Sequence record: PZ019082.1
From: a phage
Length of the DNA: 40,613 nt
Strand: one strand, 5' to 3'
Shown here: positions 25,563 through 40,613 of the stretch, one piece after another
How the letters are laid out: each line of letters begins with the position of its first letter
Numbering within the stretch: position 1 is the stretch's first letter
Position numbers and translations under genes: made by a program
Notes under the pieces: generated by a model
Told to the model about the DNA's origin: nothing
What the model saw: the letters and a program-made list of their open reading frames with translations, nothing else
Databases searched by the model: none

Positions 25563-25644
25563 AATACGCACCCCTCGCGTTTCGTGTGCTCAATACCGCA
25601 GCGCGGACAGATTCGGCAGTCTTCTTCGTAGAACCAGTAAATTT

Positions 25645-25776
25645 TCATTCCAGCACCCACAGATAAATTGCGATGAACATTCCCAATACCGCAGCCATCA
25701 TGCCGTATTGGCCCTCGTGACAATAGACACCGGCGGCAAATCCTGCCAGTAACGCGATAATCAGTTTACTTAGCAT
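25645..25776 (-). CDS. small hydrophobic membrane protein (43 aa)
   Basis: Not in ORF track; ATG overlaps last codons of DNA polymerase gene; RBS GGAG; hydrophobic throughout. Confidence 0.35.
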   Translation of the reverse strand: MLSKLIIALLAGFAAGVYCHEGQYGMMAAVLGMFIAIYLWVLE

Positions 25777-27946
25777 AGCGCTTCATCTCCGCACCTTCTG
25801 CCACAAGAGGGAACCCTTCGGCCCATTCCGGTAATTCGCACATTAATTTTTCCAGTTCAGCCACCGTGTACTCAGGTGTGTCTGGAGTTTCACACACTAA
25901 TTCATCGTGTACCGAAAGCACGATGGGGTACCCGCCGCCCTCAACATTAATCATCGCGTATGCGAGTAAATCACGGCACAGCGCCTGAGTGCAGTTTTCC
26001 ACCAGTTTACCGGAGTAGGTGTACTGGAAGCCCCACTGACGGGTTAACTGGTTTTCGCCCTGGTACTTGATGCGCACGTTAGTGGACACCTTCCCGTCTT
26101 CGTCTGCCTCTTTAGACACACTTAACCCGACGCCCGGATAAGACATAACGCGGCCCGACGGCAACGTCATGCGCAGCCACCAACCAGCGACTTTGTTGCC
26201 GTTGTTATCTGTTTCTACGTTACGCGAAAACTTAACTCCCCGCGGACCTGCAGTGAACTCTTTACCTGGGTTGCGGATAGCCGCCATAGCTGCGTCTTCA
26301 ATATCACGCCAGAATGCTACTGTTTCAGGGTGAGACTCCCGCCACATGCGCTTGATAGCGTCACAGGTGCGCCACACTTTCTTATCAAGAATATATGACG
26401 GCCGGTCGTCTTTTTCACCAGGACGTGGTTGTCGCTTGGCTTCCTGAATACGTGCCCACTCATATCCACGTGCGGTAGCGGTCCAGATGTGGTCGGGGAA
26501 AGTACCGTCCATTGTTTTAGCCATATCAACCAGGTCAAGGCCGAGGTTCTTGGCGAACTGTACGAATGCGCCGACACCGCCCGCGTAGCCAAGACCCAAT
26601 TCACAGGCTTTACCAATCTGGCGTAAGTCTTTACGTTCTTTCTTAATGTAATCCGGATCCATGCCAAACATCTTACCCGCGGTTACACAGTAAATATCCA
26701 GCCCAGCGCGGAACGTATCGAGCGCGGTTTCTTCTCCCGCCAGCCACGCAAGCCCACGGCCTTCAACGTTAGAGTAATCGGCAACGACAAACTTATGCCC
26801 TGCTTCCGGGATAATGCAGCTACGAACTGTCGATGCCGTCAGCTTGGCTACGTCAAATCGGCGGTGAGCACGACCCTTAAGTAACGCTGAAATGCCTTTA
26901 TCCAGTTCATCATCATGATAGTACCCGCGGGCCAGGTTCTGCGGCTGAAAGCCTTTACCCGCCCATCGCAAAGTACGTTTTGCCCCGCCGTACTGTAAAC
27001 AACCGCGGCGTCGGTCGTCCGACGAGCGGCCCAACAGCAGCGGGTTATATTTCGTTGATGCGGTGGATGCGGCCCCGAGGCGCATTTCGATAATCGTGCG
27101 AGCGTCGTCCGGTAAATCATCATCCGCCAGCAGGTCGTTAAGCGTCGACTTCTGCGCATTGTGGATGCGGTGCGCTGGCGCAAGTTCACGCAGAATCGGA
27201 AGGAAGTCTTTACCGGTAAGTGAGCCGCCGTATTTGCGTTGGGCTTCTTCCTGTAACTGTGCCTTGTGCTTCTCCACGGCTTCAATCGCTGCTTCTGCCA
27301 GCGCTACGTCAACCTTAAACCCGCGGTCGTTGATTAACTGGTCCAGTTCCAGTACACGGTCTTCAAACTCGGAGTTACCCCACCGCGGCAGCTTATGGAA
27401 GACTTCCCGCATCGCAGTGATGTCGCTCACGGCGTACTTGATGAACAGCGCCCACTCATCGGGATGTGTTTCAGCGGTGTAGCGGCGGATTTTGTAGTTC
27501 TTAGGTGTCGGTTTAGAAAAACGCTGAATCAGCGCCTTGCCGCGTTTGTCTTTTGCGTTGTCCGCAGACACGCCCAGCACTTCGCACAATGCGTCAAGTG
27601 AACCCGGCAGCGCGTGGCGAAACGCCCAAATCATCGTATCAATGGTGTTGCTTACCGGAATATCAAAGTCCCAGCAGTGTTTCATGATGAGCCTGTCGAA
27701 CATTGAGCCGTTGTGCCACACCATCTTAATGCGGCTGTTTGGCTTAACCAGACGGCGTAAGGCGCGGTGCAAATCCCCCGGCATGTCGCTGCCGTCTGTG
27801 CAATCCCATACCTGCACAGGCTCGTCGTCAAAAGCGTATGTGCAGATAAGCACTTCGGTAGTTGGGTGCTCTGCGTAAGCGTATGAACCGACTTTCTTTA
27901 AATCGGCTTCGGAGAATGTTTCAAAGTCTAAGAACAGGTAACTCAT
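25766..27946 (-). CDS. family A DNA polymerase with N-terminal 3-prime to 5-prime exonuclease domain
   Basis: Exo I FLDFETFS; motif A DYSNVEGR; motif B K..LGLGYAGG; motif C VHDE. Confidence 0.8.
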   Translation of the reverse strand: MSYLFLDFETFSEADLKKVGSYAYAEHPTTEVLICTYAFDDEPVQVWDCTDGSDMPGDLHRALRRLVKPNSRIKMVWHNGSMFDRLIMKHCWDFDIPVSNTIDTMIWAFRHALPGSLDALCEVLGVSADNAKDKRGKALIQRFSKPTPKNYKIRRYTAETHPDEWALFIKYAVSDITAMREVFHKLPRWGNSEFEDRVLELDQLINDRGFKVDVALAEAAIEAVEKHKAQLQEEAQRKYGGSLTGKDFLPILRELAPAHRIHNAQKSTLNDLLADDDLPDDARTIIEMRLGAASTASTKYNPLLLGRSSDDRRRGCLQYGGAKRTLRWAGKGFQPQNLARGYYHDDELDKGISALLKGRAHRRFDVAKLTASTVRSCIIPEAGHKFVVADYSNVEGRGLAWLAGEETALDTFRAGLDIYCVTAGKMFGMDPDYIKKERKDLRQIGKACELGLGYAGGVGAFVQFAKNLGLDLVDMAKTMDGTFPDHIWTATARGYEWARIQEAKRQPRPGEKDDRPSYILDKKVWRTCDAIKRMWRESHPETVAFWRDIEDAAMAAIRNPGKEFTAGPRGVKFSRNVETDNNGNKVAGWWLRMTLPSGRVMSYPGVGLSVSKEADEDGKVSTNVRIKYQGENQLTRQWGFQYTYSGKLVENCTQALCRDLLAYAMINVEGGGYPIVLSVHDELVCETPDTPEYTVAELEKLMCELPEWAEGFPLVAEGAEMKRYAK

Positions 27947-31131: not shown

Positions 31132-33402
31132 CTATTCCAAATCCTCCTCTGTCACCACCAGCATTTCATTCGGTTCGTATATTGTCTTCGGAATCTTGTT
31201 ATCGTTTATACCCCACGGCAATCGGTATTGCTTAGGGATAGGCCTGTTGTTGTTATCCAGACCTGAGACGATAACCCCGGCCTCGTGCATCTCTTCCAGT
31301 TTCTTTCGAAGGTCGTTATTAGCGTTAATCGGTACGCCGTAACTATCTTCTTTCGCTGCTTTGACGATAGCCGACATGGAAAACCCCCGCTTGTCGTCAC
31401 CCTGCTCCTGCAATTTACCTAACGCGTAAATAACCGTAGCTTCTTTGGTATCCAGTTTCTCGAACTGACCTACCTTTTCTTTAACAGCCGCTTTACCTTC
31501 CTTTGTCAGCCCTTCTTCCCGCTCTTTCTCCTCGTCGGTCTTGAATGGTTCGAAACCCCACGGCATCAGCACAAGCGCCTTGTGTGGTTCAGGCAGGTCG
31601 AGGTTTACGATTGTGCCGTATTCCTCCGTGCTTCCGAGGAACTCAACCGCGCGGTACTCTTTCGGTGGTGGCGCTTCACGGAACTGTACCGACTCCAGTA
31701 CCATGCCAACCGTCTTCTGTTGAGGCCCGTGCTTAAATTTCGAGTGGTATACATTTATTTGACGTTCGGTCGCGCGTTCGATTGTTAGTTCCACGTCGAC
31801 ACCAGCGTACAGCGCCCCACTGCCACGGGCTTTCTTTCCACCTTTCGGCGTATGGTGGACAACGCCTACCGCGGCTTTAGTTGCGTCGCGTACTTCTTTC
31901 AGGATGGCGATAACTTTACCCATGCCGATTGTCGTTGATGAACTGTTCTCGTCGAACTTATCAATCGTCAGGGCCAGCGTCTGGTTGAGGGTGTCGAACG
32001 CAACCATACCAATAGGCTCGTCGCCCGCAGTTTCGCGCATTAACTTAATCAGGCTTTTCAGTTTCCCGACTTCGCCCATGTCGATAACATGTACATAATC
32101 TTTACCTTCCTCGCCATATTTAGCCGCTAGTGCGTCGATACGTGTGCGCGTAGCTGCGCCACCTTCACCGTCAATATAGAAATGGTGGCAACGCTGGGTA
32201 TCTGCCCCGGCAAATCTGTATCCGGCGGCGCTAAGGTACATCATCCCCAGCGTATAAAACGATTTGTACGTTCCAGACTCCCCGACGATATCCCAGATGC
32301 AGTCTGTCGGCATGTATCCTTCTACGACGAAATCAGCCTTTACCGGTTCCGGTAACTCGTCCTCCTCTGAGTCCTCGTCGTCTTCCAGGTCGTCCAGACT
32401 GCATGAAACTGACTCACGCGCACCCCAGCCGATGGCCTCGGCGACTTCACTGAATGGAAGACCAGTCGCATCACACGCATACTTCCACACCTCTTTCGGT
32501 GACATGCCCTCGGTTGCCGTGATGTCTGTGTCGTGAATCATGGTTACGTTAGGTGCTTCGTACCCCTCGCGCGGGAAGCACAGCAGGAAGTCGTCCGGGC
32601 GCGGGGTCGGGTCGCTGTAGTTTTCTGCGTGTTCCGGTGTGGCGGGCATCTTAAGTCCACGCGGCGTCATGATGCCGCCGTATTCGAACGCCAGTGCCTC
32701 GAACGCATCAGTAAATGCCGTGCGCAGTTCTTCTGGTATCTGGTAATCCGATGCGCTGCTCACCTCGTAATCCGGGATGCCTTCCAGTAACTCGTCCGGG
32801 TCAATCAGGTCGTTACGGCGCGACCAGATAACGGTAGAGCCGACAGGCGGCAGGTACATCGGCTGCGACAGAGTGAACCCGCTGTGGTCCGCACCCATGC
32901 CTTTGAAGAAGTGCTCCAGCAATCCATGACGAACACGGATGATGCCACCACCTTCGACCGGGCGGCCCAGCGGCATGACGACGCGAAAGCGCGGTGACTC
33001 ATCGGTATGTGATGCCGTGGTGTAGAGGCACATAGCCAGGCGGCTACGCTTAACCAATCGCACCGCCTCCTGATACTCGTCAGGTGTTGCACTGTCGAAG
33101 TCCAGATACGCCAGCGACGATTTGTTTACAGACGCATCGCAGCGATAGAAGAAGCCTTTACGCGCCTGCTTAAAGTCCCCAGTTTCCGGGTCTTTTACGG
33201 TGCTGTGCGTTGAGTCGCACGCGGCGGTGATATACCCCGGCGCGGTCTTCGGGTTAATTCCGTCGCGAACAGCATCGAGCGGCTGGATTAACTCTTTCAG
33301 GTCGTCCAGTGTTGCCGTGTGTGTGGTTCTGACGTTTATATCCTTTTTCTCCGCCCGCGCGTTGCGACGAGACCACGAGTAGGATAAAATTACATCGGAC
33401 AT
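31132..33402 (-). CDS. putative replicative primase/helicase-like protein (756 aa)
   Basis: Central P-loop-like GESGTYKS and RecA-type layout; size and position in replication module; RBS GAAGGAAA; family assignment uncertain. Confidence 0.5.
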   Translation of the reverse strand: MSDVILSYSWSRRNARAEKKDINVRTTHTATLDDLKELIQPLDAVRDGINPKTAPGYITAACDSTHSTVKDPETGDFKQARKGFFYRCDASVNKSSLAYLDFDSATPDEYQEAVRLVKRSRLAMCLYTTASHTDESPRFRVVMPLGRPVEGGGIIRVRHGLLEHFFKGMGADHSGFTLSQPMYLPPVGSTVIWSRRNDLIDPDELLEGIPDYEVSSASDYQIPEELRTAFTDAFEALAFEYGGIMTPRGLKMPATPEHAENYSDPTPRPDDFLLCFPREGYEAPNVTMIHDTDITATEGMSPKEVWKYACDATGLPFSEVAEAIGWGARESVSCSLDDLEDDEDSEEDELPEPVKADFVVEGYMPTDCIWDIVGESGTYKSFYTLGMMYLSAAGYRFAGADTQRCHHFYIDGEGGAATRTRIDALAAKYGEEGKDYVHVIDMGEVGKLKSLIKLMRETAGDEPIGMVAFDTLNQTLALTIDKFDENSSSTTIGMGKVIAILKEVRDATKAAVGVVHHTPKGGKKARGSGALYAGVDVELTIERATERQINVYHSKFKHGPQQKTVGMVLESVQFREAPPPKEYRAVEFLGSTEEYGTIVNLDLPEPHKALVLMPWGFEPFKTDEEKEREEGLTKEGKAAVKEKVGQFEKLDTKEATVIYALGKLQEQGDDKRGFSMSAIVKAAKEDSYGVPINANNDLRKKLEEMHEAGVIVSGLDNNNRPIPKQYRLPWGINDNKIPKTIYEPNEMLVVTEEDLE

Positions 33403-33967: not shown

Positions 33968-33995
33968 TTGACAAAATAAAATGTAGCTGTAAAAT
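33968..33995 (+). promoter_or_regulatory. putative promoter TTGACA-N16-TAAAAT
   Basis: Consensus -35 and good -10 on plus strand, about 370 nt upstream of the first plus-strand early gene. Confidence 0.4.
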
Positions 33996-34363: not shown

Positions 34364-34549
34364 ATGTTTAAGAAGGGTCAGTTGGTGAGAATTTTGGAGA
34401 CAGGGGGGTTAGCGGTTATTTCATTCGCACACCACAAAGAATGTAGTGTTTATTTTGCAAAATCTTTAACGGGGTCCTATCTCACCGTGTTATACGCACA
34501 AGATATGAAACTCATCGGCAACAATTTTAAATTCAAAGGGGCGAAGTGA
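34364..34549 (+). CDS. hypothetical early protein (61 aa)
   Basis: ATG with RBS AGGAG 8 nt upstream (track ORF starts at GTG 34355). Confidence 0.5.
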   Translation: MFKKGQLVRILETGGLAVISFAHHKECSVYFAKSLTGSYLTVLYAQDMKLIGNNFKFKGAK

Positions 34550-34752
34550 TGGAAGAATTATTTGAAGAACTGAAACATCATGAGTTCGAGGAGATATATT
34601 TTGTAGCTGAACGCTACGAGGTGCATTTAGTGGACGGGGTTACAATTATTACAATGGATAGCCAGCAAATGCTAAATAGCTTACGGGCTATACGAACGGC
34701 ATCTAATCATGATGCTCGTGCCGACGACTCCGAGGGAGGTTGCCGTGAATAA
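34549..34752 (+). CDS. hypothetical early protein (67 aa)
   Basis: TGATG overlap with upstream stop. Confidence 0.45.
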   Translation: MEELFEELKHHEFEEIYFVAERYEVHLVDGVTIITMDSQQMLNSLRAIRTASNHDARADDSEGGCRE

Positions 34753-35361: not shown

Positions 35362-35481
35362 ATGGGTTGGTACGGTAGCTGGACATTAGGCGAACTGGTA
35401 GACGCTTACGAAATAATGGGTAGCACTTCGGTGTGCGACGGCGACACTAAAGCGATAACAATGGGGGTTGATGATGAGTAA
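35362..35481 (+). CDS. small early peptide (39 aa)
   Basis: Not in ORF track; ATG directly after conserved leader AAACGAGAGGAGAGACAGAAG. Confidence 0.35.
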   Translation: MGWYGSWTLGELVDAYEIMGSTSVCDGDTKAITMGVDDE

Positions 35482-35992
35482 CAAAAACGAAGTATTCGAG
35501 TGCCTGATTGACCAACTACGGCAGCAGGTAAATAACAACCAGTGTGAAGACCTGGCGCATGAGGTGCTGTCACTTAAGAATCAGTTACGTGATGCTTCGG
35601 CGCTGGTGGCCGAGTTACAGCGAGAGCCGCAACATCAGATTGACCTGGCGTCGGGTGTGTATAGATGGTCTACCGCACATTTCGACGAGAAAGGTAAAGT
35701 CACCAAGGTCGAGAGTGGGGTTAAGACAGAGCAATCCGGTTGCCGTAAAGAAGACGTGCAGGAATGTGAGCACGATTGGGTTGAGTTTCACGGTTTGTTT
35801 ATTGCAGAGGGGGACCTGCGAAATGAACCTGGGTATACCTTCTGCCGTAAATGCGGGCTGAAAGAATACTCCCGTAAATGTGAACATGAATGGTCCATGG
35901 TAACTGGCGACGGCCCAAGTTTCTATGAGTGCGATGTGTGCGGAGCCCGTAGTAAAGATTTACCGTACGACTTACGGTGGTTGGCACTATGA
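35471..35992 (+). CDS. cysteine-rich protein with two zinc-ribbon-like CEH[DE]W ... C..CG modules
   Basis: ECEHDWVEF...FCRKCG and KCEHEWSMV...CDVCG; track ORF starts at TTG 35468. Confidence 0.5.
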   Translation: MMSNKNEVFECLIDQLRQQVNNNQCEDLAHEVLSLKNQLRDASALVAELQREPQHQIDLASGVYRWSTAHFDEKGKVTKVESGVKTEQSGCRKEDVQECEHDWVEFHGLFIAEGDLRNEPGYTFCRKCGLKEYSRKCEHEWSMVTGDGPSFYECDVCGARSKDLPYDLRWLAL

Positions 35993-36192
35993 CCAGCATC
36001 TTATTTATCTGGGTATTGTCCGCAGGCCAGATGCAACTCGCAGCATCAGAAACGTTTTATTCGATGGGGGCGTGCCAGTCAGCGGCACGCGCCGCGGAGA
36101 ACGCGCACTTCATGTTTCAGGGCGACAAACCAAACGATTCAGAGGTACGCGCTATCTGCTCACCTAAGCGACTTGGTAAACAGGAGAAGTGA
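35989..36192 (+). CDS. small protein with N-terminal signal-peptide-like segment (67 aa)
   Basis: ATGA coupling; hydrophobic N-terminus MTSILFIWVLSAGQMQLAA; three cysteines. Confidence 0.4.
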   Translation: MTSILFIWVLSAGQMQLAASETFYSMGACQSAARAAENAHFMFQGDKPNDSEVRAICSPKRLGKQEK

Positions 36193-36194
36193 TT

Positions 36195-36377
36195 ATGGTT
36201 GCTCGTAAAGGCTTTTATGAAGATGGTCATTTCGATAGCAAAGTAAACGGTGAATACGTCACATACGAAGACTACGCGAAACTTGAAGCCGAGTTACAGA
36301 AATACAAAGACCAGTTCCCGGATTACGTCGAGTGCGCGAACTGTGGGTCAGTTACACATGTGGAGGGGGTGGAGTGA
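36195..36377 (+). CDS. hypothetical early protein (60 aa)
   Basis: ATG with RBS GGAG 8 nt upstream; C-terminal CANCGS motif. Confidence 0.45.
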   Translation: MVARKGFYEDGHFDSKVNGEYVTYEDYAKLEAELQKYKDQFPDYVECANCGSVTHVEGVE

Positions 36378-36670
36378 TGTCTCTGGCTACTGATATCCTG
36401 AAACGTAGCGGCCTCGCGCCGCTGTCACCGAGAGCGAACACCCGGATATACAAGCGCCGCCGTAATGCGCTGTACCCTGAGATTCAGGCCAGGCGCAAAG
36501 CGGTACGCGCCTGTGGATTCCAGAACGGGAAGGCCGTGAATCTTGGTGAGTTTAAAACCCAGGAACGCGCAGCAATCGCTAATCGGTTATTTAATTACTG
36601 GAAGTCGCTGGGGTACGATGATATTCCAACGAAACCACAGAGACGACAATACATCTGGCGTCATAAATAA
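36377..36670 (+). CDS. basic hypothetical protein (97 aa)
   Basis: TGATG coupling; Arg/Lys-rich; track ORF starts upstream at 36332. Confidence 0.4.
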   Translation: MSLATDILKRSGLAPLSPRANTRIYKRRRNALYPEIQARRKAVRACGFQNGKAVNLGEFKTQERAAIANRLFNYWKSLGYDDIPTKPQRRQYIWRHK

Positions 36671-36745
36671 ACCGTTATTAAGATAATTCCTAACCGTGCT
36701 ATCCTCCAGTTACTGCATACTTAATACGCACCTGGAGGATTCATC

Positions 36746-37054
36746 TTGGATAAATTTACTGAAACAGTGACGGGGTGGCTTCTCGCTGCCGCACTGGTCG
36801 GTGGATTGGTCGGACTAAGACAACATAAAAAGTCTATATCCGGGCCGATTGACGGACTGGTATTTCTTCTAACCGGCTTTGCGTGTGCCATTTTCGGTGC
36901 ACCTCTTGCCGCTCAATGGTTCGGTATTACCGGTGAGCGTGAGATAGCTGGCCTCGGATTCATCATTGCCATTCTCTGGATGCCTATCTATTCCCGCCTT
37001 TCTGGCATCGTATCGGGTGGAGATATTTCCCGTCCGGGAGGACCTCATGACTGA
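36746..37054 (+). CDS. putative holin (three predicted transmembrane segments)
   Basis: TTG start 6 nt after RBS GGAGGA; three hydrophobic segments; immediately upstream of endolysin cluster. Confidence 0.5.
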   Translation: MDKFTETVTGWLLAAALVGGLVGLRQHKKSISGPIDGLVFLLTGFACAIFGAPLAAQWFGITGEREIAGLGFIIAILWMPIYSRLSGIVSGGDISRPGGPHD

Positions 37055-37319
37055 GCTATTCTGGTTTGTCGTAATGCTTTCAATGGGCGCTTCGTCCCTG
37101 TTCAACGTGTATAATGAGCGTGTGGACGACGGGCTGTTCGGGCGTGTTCTCTATATCCTGACCGCTATTGTCTGCGCCGCCGGGTGTATCCACCTGTTAC
37201 AGGGCGGCATGTCGCCTACGTTGCCCGAGACATTAATCACATTAGTTGCGCTGCGTCAGATTCGTCAGGCGTGGCTGTCGTACGGAGGACATAAGCGTGT
37301 CTCGAAACATTTCAGATAA
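37047..37319 (+). CDS. second small membrane protein (possible antiholin or holin partner)
   Basis: ATG with RBS GGAGGA overlapping holin end; two hydrophobic segments. Confidence 0.4.
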   Translation: MTELFWFVVMLSMGASSLFNVYNERVDDGLFGRVLYILTAIVCAAGCIHLLQGGMSPTLPETLITLVALRQIRQAWLSYGGHKRVSKHFR

Positions 37320-37782
37320 TGGATTGCATTTTACCTCTGCATTTGAGGGATTCCGCGGAACTGCGTATCGTGCTACCCCAAACGAGAAGTACCTTACTAT
37401 TGGGTACGGACATTACGGGCCGGACGTAACCCCGGGTAAGACCATCACACCGGGGCAGGGCTTGCTGTTACTGAATCGCGATATGGCTAAGGCTGTAGCT
37501 GCGGTTGACGCGGCAGCACACCATTCGCTGACACAGGCACAGTTTGATGCAGTGTGCGACCTGGTCTATAACGCGGGTGCTGGTGTGATTGCAGCTACTA
37601 CAGGCACGGGTAAGGCGCTGCGTTCTGGTGATATTGCAACGCTGCGGGCTAAGCTGGCGCTGTTTATCAACCAGAACGGCAAACCGTTACTCGGCCTGCG
37701 TCGCCGTACAGCCGGACGCCTTGCACTGTTCGACGGTAAACCGTGGCAGGAGGCTGAGGCTATTGGGAGGGCTGTTAAATGA
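37297..37782 (+). CDS. endolysin, glycoside hydrolase family 24 (T4-type lysozyme)
   Basis: Motif FEGFRGTAYRATPNEKYLTIGYGHYG; GTG start with RBS GGAGGA (track ORF starts at 37246). Confidence 0.75.
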   Translation: MSRNISDNGLHFTSAFEGFRGTAYRATPNEKYLTIGYGHYGPDVTPGKTITPGQGLLLLNRDMAKAVAAVDAAAHHSLTQAQFDAVCDLVYNAGAGVIAATTGTGKALRSGDIATLRAKLALFINQNGKPLLGLRRRTAGRLALFDGKPWQEAEAIGRAVK

Positions 37783-37816
37783 TGGAAGAGAACTGGGACG
37801 TATAGTACAATTGCAG

Positions 37817-37902
37817 CGCCGCTTGTGCTTGCGAAGGATTGAAGTGATGATGGACGAATACGAAGGCGTTTAGTAAACTTACATCACGCCGCTTGTGCTT
37901 GC
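37817..37902. repeat. 16-bp direct repeat CGCCGCTTGTGCTTGC (37817-37832 and 37887-37902)
   Basis: Exact repeat in noncoding region downstream of endolysin. Confidence 0.6.
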
Positions 37903-37906
37903 ACCA

Positions 37907-37934
37907 CCCCGAAACCCGGACCCCGAAACCCGGA
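37907..37934. repeat. tandem duplication of 14-bp unit CCCCGAAACCCGGA
   Basis: Two exact adjacent copies; second copy forms the 5-prime arm of the terminator hairpin. Confidence 0.65.
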
Positions 37935-37956
37935 CCGCGAATCCGGGTTTTATTTT
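37928..37956 (+). terminator. rho-independent terminator
   Basis: ACCCGGA-CCGCGAA-TCCGGGT hairpin followed by TTTTATTTT. Confidence 0.7.
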
Positions 37957-38085
37957 GCCCGCAGTTTGATAGACTAACGGCAACAGAAGATTAAACAACA
38001 TTGAGGGCACTCCGGGTATCATCACCCTCATGGACCTGTAACAAGGTCTGGCCAAAGTGCGGTAACGCGTGCCGGAGAATCTCTG

Positions 38086-38114
38086 TTGACACCTAAGACT
38101 AATCCGACGATACT
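38086..38114 (+). promoter_or_regulatory. putative promoter TTGACA-N17-GATACT
   Basis: Consensus -35 with moderate -10; about 45 nt upstream of terminator 38156-38186. Confidence 0.3.
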
Positions 38115-38155
38115 TAAATCACCTCCTGTTCCATCCCTCTACTCTCCAGTTTTAT

Positions 38156-38186
38156 CCCGGCCCTGACCCAGCCGGGATTTTTTTTA
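38156..38186 (+). terminator. rho-independent terminator
   Basis: CCCGGC-CCTGACCCA-GCCGGG hairpin followed by ATTTTTTTT. Confidence 0.7.
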
Positions 38187-38207
38187 TTTATTTTCTGCAA
38201 TGACTAG

Positions 38208-38236
38208 TTGACTATTACCTTCGACCCTATTATATT
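38208..38236 (+). promoter_or_regulatory. promoter TTGACT-N17-TATATT
   Basis: Followed by leader AACGAGAACGGAGTAGAGAGA and ATG 38271. Confidence 0.55.
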
Positions 38237-38270
38237 TACTCCATCGACAACGAGAACGGAGTAGAGAGAA

Positions 38271-38411
38271 ATGAGAATTTACAAGGTTGAGCTTCACGGT
38301 AAAGTACTTGGTCATTATAACTTTGGCGAGTACATCTCCGCCGATTGCGCACGTGACATCCTGATTAGCGAAGGTTTTAGTCAATACATCAAAGTCACGG
38401 AGATTAAATAA
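38271..38411 (+). CDS. small hypothetical protein (46 aa)
   Basis: Not in ORF track; RBS GGAGTAGAGAGA; first gene after promoter. Confidence 0.4.
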   Translation: MRIYKVELHGKVLGHYNFGEYISADCARDILISEGFSQYIKVTEIK

Positions 38412-38560
38412 TGAAAATCACAGATACCGAAGCATTCAAAGACGCACAACTGATGGCACGCATCGCCGTTAGTAACCTGAGCAACAGCATTCCGGCTGAC
38501 GCGTTCTGGTTCGCTGCGATGCAGACACTGAAAGCAGCTTATGCAGGAGAGAAGAAATGA
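38411..38560 (+). CDS. small hypothetical protein (49 aa)
   Basis: Not in ORF track; TAATG overlap coupling. Confidence 0.35.
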   Translation: MKITDTEAFKDAQLMARIAVSNLSNSIPADAFWFAAMQTLKAAYAGEKK

Positions 38561-38718
38561 GCGAACAAGGTCAAGTAAGCCAGCCATTACGAGTAGGCCG
38601 TAAAGTAAATCACACCCCGTTCCCAACACGCGAGGAACTGATGAAACGTAACAGTTTCCCTGGGCCAGACAAGAACAAGTATCTCAATCGCATGTGGGGA
38701 GAGCGTAAAAATGACTGA
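38557..38718 (+). CDS. small hypothetical protein (53 aa)
   Basis: Not in ORF track; ATGA overlap coupling. Confidence 0.35.
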   Translation: MSEQGQVSQPLRVGRKVNHTPFPTREELMKRNSFPGPDKNKYLNRMWGERKND

Positions 38719-38896
38719 CCGCGACTACGAAAAGATGATGGTAGAGGCCGTTAACAGCGGCATAGACATTGGCCACGTGATGCACGTCCTGAATACTAAA
38801 ATCGCGGTAGCCGAGCAAATGGTAGAGTCGCTATATGAGACGCGCCGCGAGCTGATTAACCGCTTCAACCTGAACAAAGGTGACACCAATGCCTAA
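38711..38896 (+). CDS. hypothetical protein (61 aa)
   Basis: ORF overlapping upstream stop. Confidence 0.45.
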   Translation: MTDRDYEKMMVEAVNSGIDIGHVMHVLNTKIAVAEQMVESLYETRRELINRFNLNKGDTNA

Positions 38897-39137
38897 AATA
38901 ACAATCGCATCACTCGAGCGCCGTATTCTGGTGCTTGAGTCAGAGAAACAGACGTTAGGCGGGCAACTGTCAATTAACGGTGAGTACCAGTTAGCCGCAT
39001 TTAAGGTTCTTCTCATGTTGTTGAGAGGAGAAGAGGAAAAGATGAACGCCTGCGAGCATGATTACCGCCTGCATTTAGTTGATGGGGTACATCGAGTCAC
39101 ATGCTTAAAATGTGGTAAAGCGTATGGAGTCGCCTGA
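38889..39137 (+). CDS. zinc-ribbon-like protein (82 aa)
   Basis: C-terminal ACEHDYRLHLVDGVHRVTCLKCG, same module as in 35471..35992; RBS AAAGGTGA. Confidence 0.45.
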   Translation: MPKITIASLERRILVLESEKQTLGGQLSINGEYQLAAFKVLLMLLRGEEEKMNACEHDYRLHLVDGVHRVTCLKCGKAYGVA

Positions 39138-40512: not shown

Positions 40513-40534
40513 GCCCTCTACGGAGGGCTTTTCT
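40513..40534 (+). terminator. rho-independent terminator
   Basis: GCCCTC-TACG-GAGGGC hairpin followed by TTTTCT. Confidence 0.7.
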
Positions 40535-40613
40535 GTACATCCCGCCCAATCCCCTTATATAATCCATTTAGACGCGTAGGGCGCGTCTGGTGCGCTCTGA
40601 TGGTCAGACGCAT

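Follow-up and report, generated by a model that had tools for sequence, protein, structure and literature searches.

A recurrent zinc-ribbon-like module in the C-terminal parts of small phage proteins

The DNA analysed here, the phage sequence record PZ019082.1 (40,613 nucleotides, the whole of which is referred to as the window), contains two small plus-strand genes, open reading frames (ORFs) A and B, whose products carry three copies of a short module in which a Cys-x-His-x-aromatic motif is followed by a CxxCG knuckle. The right-hand 6.6 kb of the window is ~92% identical, over about two thirds of the query, to the Kagunavirus phages K1ind2/3, K1H and K1G, and Salmonella Jerseyvirus phages are more distant matches; all these phages belong to the Guernseyvirinae. 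The region comprises small ORFs in two clusters, a rightward one and a second one extending up to the terminase genes, with a holin-holin-endolysin cassette in between. A preliminary description of the sequence had given the entire span 35471-39137 as the module region, but this span also includes unrelated genes, among them the lysis cassette. The carrier genes and their modules are:

35471..35992, plus strand: ORF A, 173 amino acids (aa); predicted long N-terminal helix, small hairpin, disordered linker and two C-terminal modules; phrog_6094
35765..35857, plus strand: module A1, long-loop subtype, C99-E-H101-D-W103...C125-R-K-C128-G
35879..35944, plus strand: module A2, short acidic subtype, C137-E-H139-E-W141...C154-D-V-C157-G
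38889..39137, plus strand: ORF B, 82 aa; predicted helical hairpin (residues 6-22 and 29-53) and C-terminal module; phrog_9023
39051..39116, plus strand: module B, C55-E-H57-D-Y59...C72-L-K-C75-G

Occurrence and conserved core of the module

In a six-frame scan CEH[DE][WYF] occurs exactly three times in the window and nowhere else in any frame, each time followed by CxxCG. All copies are located in conserved plus-strand genes, two in ORF A (CEHDW, 35765-35779, and CEHEW, 35879-35893) and one in ORF B (CEHDY, 39051-39065). The observation underlying the preliminary description, i.e. a motif plus knuckle that recurs in two proteins, is thus borne out, and the recurrence is far above chance: in 300 dinucleotide-preserving shuffles of the window the short motif was found 0.017 times on average and at most once, so that 0/300 shuffles reached three, and the full pattern CEH[DE][WYF]...CxxCG averaged 0.013 per shuffle. 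As the codons differ between the copies (TGT GAG CAC GAT TGG, TGT GAA CAT GAA TGG and TGC GAG CAT GAT TAC), the recurrence is at the protein level, and a DNA repeat is ruled out as its explanation.

ORF A and ORF B are real genes, as both are preceded by Shine-Dalgarno-like sequences (GGGGG before 35471/35474 and GGTGA before 38889, respectively) and have many homologues (1285 in the case of ORF A, 280 in that of ORF B), which without exception lie on contigs of ~40-45 kb of the Guernseyvirinae type. An alternative start of ORF A at 35474 yields MSNKNEV, as in the homologues. Both proteins match PHROG profiles over their full length (phrog_6094 with an expectation value (E) of 9.1e-42 and phrog_9023 with E 4.4e-47). 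ORF B does not end with the motif, as had been stated before, but runs seven residues past CxxCG (KAYGVA). The two carriers resemble each other solely in the module, their N-termini being without similarity, in agreement with their earlier description as unrelated proteins. The second module of ORF A and the module of ORF B align over 30 ungapped residues with 33% identity (BLASTP, pairwise E 0.002), and in the profile-profile comparison of A and B (E 3.6e-5, probability 71%) the aligned part comprises the linker and CxHx-aromatic only. As an observation apart, the product of ORF 34546-34752 (68 aa) has the hexapeptide HLVDGV in common with the hairpin of ORF B and a KHHEF at the place of the module's CxHxF, without Cys ligands; its K1ind2 homologue reads HLADGI and has neither Cys nor His ligands, and the sharing is probably due to chance, or possibly a degenerate relic.

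The conserved core was delimited by counting from the CxxCG knuckles, i.e. without presupposing the motif. In family A, the homologues of ORF A (120 proteins), CxH precedes 218 of 230 knuckles within 30 residues, with CxHx-hydrophobic before 209 and CxH lacking the aromatic residue before 9 more; in family B, the homologues of ORF B, this is the case for 71 of 75. C99, H101, C125 and C128 are invariant in the alignment of family A, as are C72, K74, C75 and G76 in the full-length alignment of family B, where C55, H57, D58 and Y59 are found in at least 90% of the sequences. Positions 2 and 4, occupied in the window by Glu and by Asp/Glu, respectively, and counted earlier as part of the motif, vary among the modules and show preferences rather than invariant residues. 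Judging from these alignments, the true signature is C-x-H-x-aromatic, followed by 7-21 variable residues and CxxCG. The loops vary in sequence, the cores span 16-30 residues, and the second knuckle is commonly C-[RK]-K-C-G with basic residues (GLKK) after it in many subtypes.

Gain, loss and exchange of the module

Three further elements of the window bear on the mobility of the module:

35729..35755, plus strand: conserved 27-nucleotide island GAGCAATCCGGTTGCCGTAAAGAAGAC, encoding EQSGCRKED; linker and mosaic junction in ORF A, with variable N-terminal parts on one side and variable module arrays on the other
36189..36377, plus strand: ORF of 62 aa, phrog_29624, ending in YVECANCGSVTHVEGVE; weak Lar-like match
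38711..38896, plus strand: module-less neighbour ORF of 61 aa, phrog_1402, just upstream of ORF B, ending in ...NLNKGDTNA

The proteins of family A have a common N-terminal coiled coil and 0-4 modules (strict pattern count) of more than 15 subtypes, and most of those that apparently have none differ from the pattern by an additional Cys in the loop or by displacement of the first Cys. In ORF A the modules of the window are ~89% identical to those of Salmonella phages, but only ~40% to those of the K1 Kagunavirus phages, which are otherwise closest; this indicates a mosaic boundary inside ORF A. The ~89% protein identity, observed with the Salmonella Jerseyvirus phages LP31, CKT1 and SHWT1, covers the module-bearing C-terminal part (35729-35992). 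The 27-nucleotide island is kept in nine loci, where the flanking sequences can be non-homologous, and in phage Ent1 identity restarts at the linker and extends through the module into the downstream gene, which together identify the linker as the mosaic junction. In family A the linker residues Q88 and G90 are invariant, and E87, S89, C91, R92, K93 and D95 are present in at least 90% of the sequences.

Presence/absence of the module can also be seen in other genes. The K1ind2 homologue of ORF 38711-38896 continues with ...NLNK-CEHEFDYNPKDMCGQCIKCG, i.e. with a module, whereas in the DNA alignment ~60 nucleotides of it are absent from the window; as the flanks are near-identical, this is a clean polymorphism between the window and K1ind2. 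The phrog_1402 match of this ORF stops at position 62 of the 82 profile positions. Likewise, ORF 36189-36377 represents a module-less form, since a relative (P0278) goes on with the QSGCRKED linker and a module; its Lar-like match is weak (E 0.08 in Pfam, E 0.0035 in PHROG, 13.6 bits vs a cutoff of 28.6). Moreover, the module is found downstream of DUF551 (P0287, 39.3 bits) and DUF7438 (P0275, Ent1 gp46 type, 56 bits). In family B (homologues P0121-P0240) an N-terminal stretch of ~42 residues is conserved almost throughout. The forms of 79-82 aa have the module after it, whereas those of 67 aa end in an acidic tail without relation to the module, ...EEEQKLLLSPEFDYGVDDESA; the tail EEEQKLLLSPEFDYGVDDESA resembles a short linear interaction motif. 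Taken at the level of sequence comparison, these cases show the module as a mobile C-terminal add-on that has been gained, lost, duplicated and exchanged among accessory genes.

The module also occurs far beyond these families. A profile built from the module alignment was searched exhaustively against 1.84 billion representative proteins and gave 78 matches at E <= 0.001, including unrelated small proteins with 1-3 modules; eukaryotic C2H2 arrays among the matches were regarded as noise. The exhaustive search also returned giant proteins with signal peptides and N-terminal tandem modules: P0262, P0276, P0292 and P0304 (1824-4195 aa) have 2-5 tandem CEH[DE]W...CxKCG modules near the N-terminus, and P0247 and P0256 carry related repeats, a secreted setting that is unusual for a zinc ribbon. 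A word-indexed homologue search with the module profile yielded 63 candidates and was of no further use. IMG/VR, searched with degenerate DNA patterns for CEH[DE]W-x7-17-CxxCG, contains 192 matches (109 with TGT and 83 with TGC as first codon), and 192/192 are in frame and open, where about one third would be expected by chance; the permuted control CHE[DE]W gave 2. Most carriers are small (median ~90-107 aa), and in many of them a helix is followed by a C-terminal module. None of ten sampled carriers contains a Pfam family above cutoff, and 2/10 have a PHROG match at E <= 0.001, in either case with a family whose function is unknown. For two module proteins from outside the Guernseyvirinae the genomic context is limited to contigs of 1-2 kb. 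The module family is widespread in viruses, frequent in viral metagenomes and uncurated. About a fifth of the TGT-pattern matches (L010, L020, L025, L029, L030, L033 and others) form a ~190-aa family whose members have ...HRQCEHEWGDxDxDGxxECQKCG at the C-terminus and two segments predicted to be hydrophobic. In Raoultella phage RP180 (L005), an unannotated minus-strand ORF of 65 aa (31167-31361) adjacent to the gene for DNA polymerase includes CKHVY...CRDC and may be another module-like small protein, here in a replication cluster.

Predicted structure and relation to known zinc ribbons

AlphaFold2 models based on the family alignments have the same topology in all three copies, i.e. CxH, strand, loop, strand, CxxC, so that the comparison of predicted folds, which had been proposed as a check, revealed no mismatch. 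A feature of zinc ribbons, a β-hairpin flanked by the two knuckles, the second of which lies at the end of a strand, is predicted in each copy. In ORF B (mean predicted local distance difference test score (pLDDT) 83) the helices 6-22 and 29-53 precede C55-x-H57, a strand (59-64), a turn, a second strand (67-72) and C72-x-x-C75. ORF A (mean pLDDT 67.5) is predicted to consist of a long helix (4-67), then a small hairpin and, behind a disordered linker (84-93), the two modules, with strands 103-106/122-125 in A1 and 141-144/151-154 in A2. The candidate ligands Cys, His, Cys and Cys are conserved in both families, the first knuckle being C-x-H instead of CxxC or CxxH. Cys and His residues that are two positions apart on an extended chain face the same side, as do the His-x-His zinc ligands of carbonic anhydrase, and chelation by C-x-H is therefore plausible. 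The earlier suggestion of a shared, small zinc-ribbon-like module thus agrees with the sequences and the predicted topology, metal binding itself being the part that we infer.

Neither the two ORFs nor the isolated modules are matched by any Pfam or NCBIfam model at cutoff, and a named family for the module was not found in Pfam, PHROG or NCBIfam. All sub-threshold matches are weak and involve the second knuckles of zinc ribbons, e.g. DUF7577, Zn_Ribbon_1, Zn_Ribbon_Prim, A2L and, in the PDB, the ribosomal proteins S27e/S29/L32. The profile search proposed earlier as a check therefore points to zinc-ribbon knuckles throughout but to no curated family above threshold. Searches of PDB sequences, for which ORF A and the profiles of family B and of the module served as queries, found weak knuckle matches and no relative. 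The literature search yielded nothing relevant on the motif, on Kagunavirus/Guernseyvirinae plus zinc or on small phage zinc-ribbon proteins; an ApeA preprint mentions Guernseyvirinae solely as sensitive phages.

The nearest relative of the window modules is the FmdB zinc ribbon (TIGR02605 CxxC_CxxC_SSSS; PF09723 Zn_ribbon_8). Common to both are C-x-H-x-[FW] starting from a Cys of the first knuckle, a subsequent β-hairpin and a second knuckle CxxCG. In the window modules, however, the first Cys of the N-terminal knuckle is absent (position -3 is V96 and S134 in ORF A and M52 in ORF B), the loops are variable with 7-21 residues and there is no Ser-rich tail. A viral protein with a four-Cys (C4) pattern, CxxCEHEW...CEECG, is a clear FmdB ribbon (60.3 bits on TIGR02605, cutoff 31.3), and as it contains the same CEHEW, CEH[DE]W is the motif that comes after the first knuckle in C4 ribbons of the FmdB type. 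The extra Cys at position -3 (CxxCEHEW...CxxCG) is present in 22 of the 192 CEH[DE]W modules from IMG/VR and missing in 170. To judge from the residues at these positions, the window modules are a variant in which the first cysteine has been lost, leaving Cys, His, Cys, Cys. Two features set them apart from the FmdB family proper: the first knuckle is not CxxC, and the family score is not reached, as ORF A and ORF B have no NCBIfam match at E <= 0.1 and PF09723 is matched by 1/78 modules (E 0.021).

Some ribbons of the TFIIB type (PF08271) are known to use three Cys and one His in the arrangement C-x2-H...C-x2-C. The candidate ligands of the window modules are likewise three Cys and one His, but their first knuckle is C-x-H instead of C-x2-H and there is no cyclin-fold or transcription-factor context. 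PF08271 does not match the window proteins, and the RP180 homologue reaches E 0.86; only in P0276 do five tandem CEHEW...CSKCG modules jointly pass the cutoff (42.5 vs 29 bits). Helices together with a Cys-rich knuckle are also found in small accessory proteins of phages such as Lar (PF14354) and the DksA/TraR C4 fingers (TIGR02419), but ORF A and ORF B match neither, and ligand pattern and order differ. DksA-type coiled coils are marked by an acidic tip motif. A DksA/TraR-like nature of ORF B is rejected, as there is no family match and the tip of its hairpin is non-acidic (LGGQLS). The most fitting description of the module is that of an FmdB-like zinc ribbon depleted in cysteine (Cys-His-Cys-Cys), a variation on a very common fold. 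Neither this relation to the FmdB motif after the first knuckle nor the viral breadth of the module or its character as a mobile add-on of variable copy number, which are the main points of this work, formed part of the preliminary description.

Possible role of the module

Based on these findings we propose, with a probability of about 0.6, that the three copies are homologous instances of a Cys3-His zinc-ribbon mini-domain that constitutes a swappable C-terminal add-on and serves as protein-binding targeting adaptor. The module would be a compact, autonomous mini-domain of ~20-32 residues, made up of Cys-x-His-x-aromatic, a β-hairpin with a variable loop and the CxxCG knuckle, in other words a zinc ribbon with a first knuckle reduced from CxxC to CxH. 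Each module would hold one Zn(II) via three Cys and one His and fold autonomously, and the N-terminal parts of the carriers are predicted to be helical and probably oligomeric. Recombination would add, remove, duplicate or swap the module; in ORF A, comparison of the loci shows the 27-nucleotide stretch encoding EQSGCRKED as the exchange point. As conservation is restricted to the ligands and the aromatic residue, with hypervariable loops, and as the modules of ORF A are acidic, the module may be a scaffold that presents the variable hairpin loop as functional surface for protein-protein recognition. The acidic nature of ORF A (isoelectric point (pI) 5.1, net charge -10, with -3 and -2 on its modules) makes protein recognition likelier than nucleic-acid binding, an argument that is weaker for the near-neutral ORF B (pI 7.7). 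Finally, the accessory, hypervariable character of the carrier genes leads us to guess at a role in host takeover or anti-defence, where several copies on a coiled-coil stalk might act as targeting adaptor.

Several points weigh against this proposal. The pLDDT of the modules is moderate (55-82), and no structural neighbour of the module reached significance in fold searches. In these comparisons the helices dominate; Foldseek found only its own family and uncharacterised phage proteins for ORF B in BFVD, and scattered zinc domains for ORF A in the PDB, which are not significant (best E 1.4). Zn binding, ligation by the His and the geometry of the metal site are deduced rather than observed, and as canonical FmdB ribbons keep the same His despite their four Cys, conservation of the His alone is no proof of ligation. 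The similarity between the modules of A and B is weak (hhalign probability 71%), and the PHROG families involved, including phrog_6094 and phrog_9023, are all annotated as "unknown function". The protein-binding role, for its part, is suggested by charge and variability only; as the CxKCG knuckle is basic, contacts to nucleic acids would also fit, all the more so for the near-neutral module of ORF B.

Such contacts are at the centre of one alternative, according to which the modules bind nucleic acids like the zinc ribbons of TFIIB, primases and ribosomal proteins, ORF A and ORF B being small DNA/RNA-binding regulators. The weak profile matches include ribbons of these kinds, and the usual C-[RK]-K-C-G knuckle, the basic residues next to it in many subtypes and the pI of ORF B are in line with it. 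Yet ORF A is strongly acidic, as are both its modules, a fixed nucleic-acid target would require conserved rather than hypervariable loops, and the same module is present in secreted giant proteins with signal peptides, and we thus consider this alternative unlikely. The module might also be a mere folding staple, i.e. a metal or disulfide clasp that stabilises very small proteins and plays no part in recognition itself, the function residing in the N-terminal helical parts. This would account for family B, where nearly every one of the 42 N-terminal residues is kept in at least 90% of the sequences and the C-terminus can be replaced by the acidic tail, and for the two neighbouring ORFs of the window that are module-less forms. 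For a staple, however, one would expect neither 2-4 modules of different subtypes in a row behind a coiled coil that is long and stable on its own, nor exchange as a unit among six N-terminal contexts, and the probability of this alternative, too, appears low.

That the three copies are alike by convergence or chance, as generic Cys-rich knuckles without common origin, is disfavoured and very improbable. The modules are short and the pairwise similarity between A and B (33% over 30 residues) is weak, as this explanation would predict, but the observed count was reached in none of the shuffles, the permuted pattern occurs 2 vs 109 times in IMG/VR, and near-identical subtypes with the same linker are found behind different N-terminal domains, with nucleotide identity that continues past the module into the gene downstream.

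Turning back to the zinc-ribbon mini-domain as targeting adaptor, one may speculate further that it is an uncurated, widespread viral domain used as interchangeable targeting "warhead", whose loop variants, single or arrayed, are shuffled onto oligomeric helical stalks, the 27-nucleotide linker of the Guernseyvirinae being a cassette for the rapid retargeting of host-takeover/anti-defence proteins. We regard this extension as rather doubtful. As most small accessory genes of phages are unannotated, a short and easily searched module provides a handle to group hundreds of orphan phage proteins. If recognition takes place at the variable hairpin loops, near-identical phages that differ in presence/absence or copy number of the module offer natural experiments by which to find its targets, and the window and K1ind2 form one such pair. 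The conserved linker, moreover, is a clean example of a defined mosaic junction within a coding sequence.

Further elements of the window, the transcription signals among them being matches to consensus sequences only, are:

33968..33995, plus strand: sigma-70-like promoter TTGACA-16-TAAAAT (11/12), upstream of the ORF A cluster
38208..38236, plus strand: sigma-70-like promoter TTGACT-17-TATATT (10/12), upstream of the ORF B cluster
40513-40528: terminator-like hairpin, closing the ORF B cluster unit
40534-40563: promoter-like site which, together with the hairpin 40513-40528, lies just before the terminase genes

The arrangement of these promoter- and terminator-like sites suggests separate transcription units. 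On the minus strand, a frame at 25607-25738 with CRRC...CRICPRCG, a canonical four-Cys pattern, is located just downstream of a minus-strand ORF of 726 aa (25766-27946).

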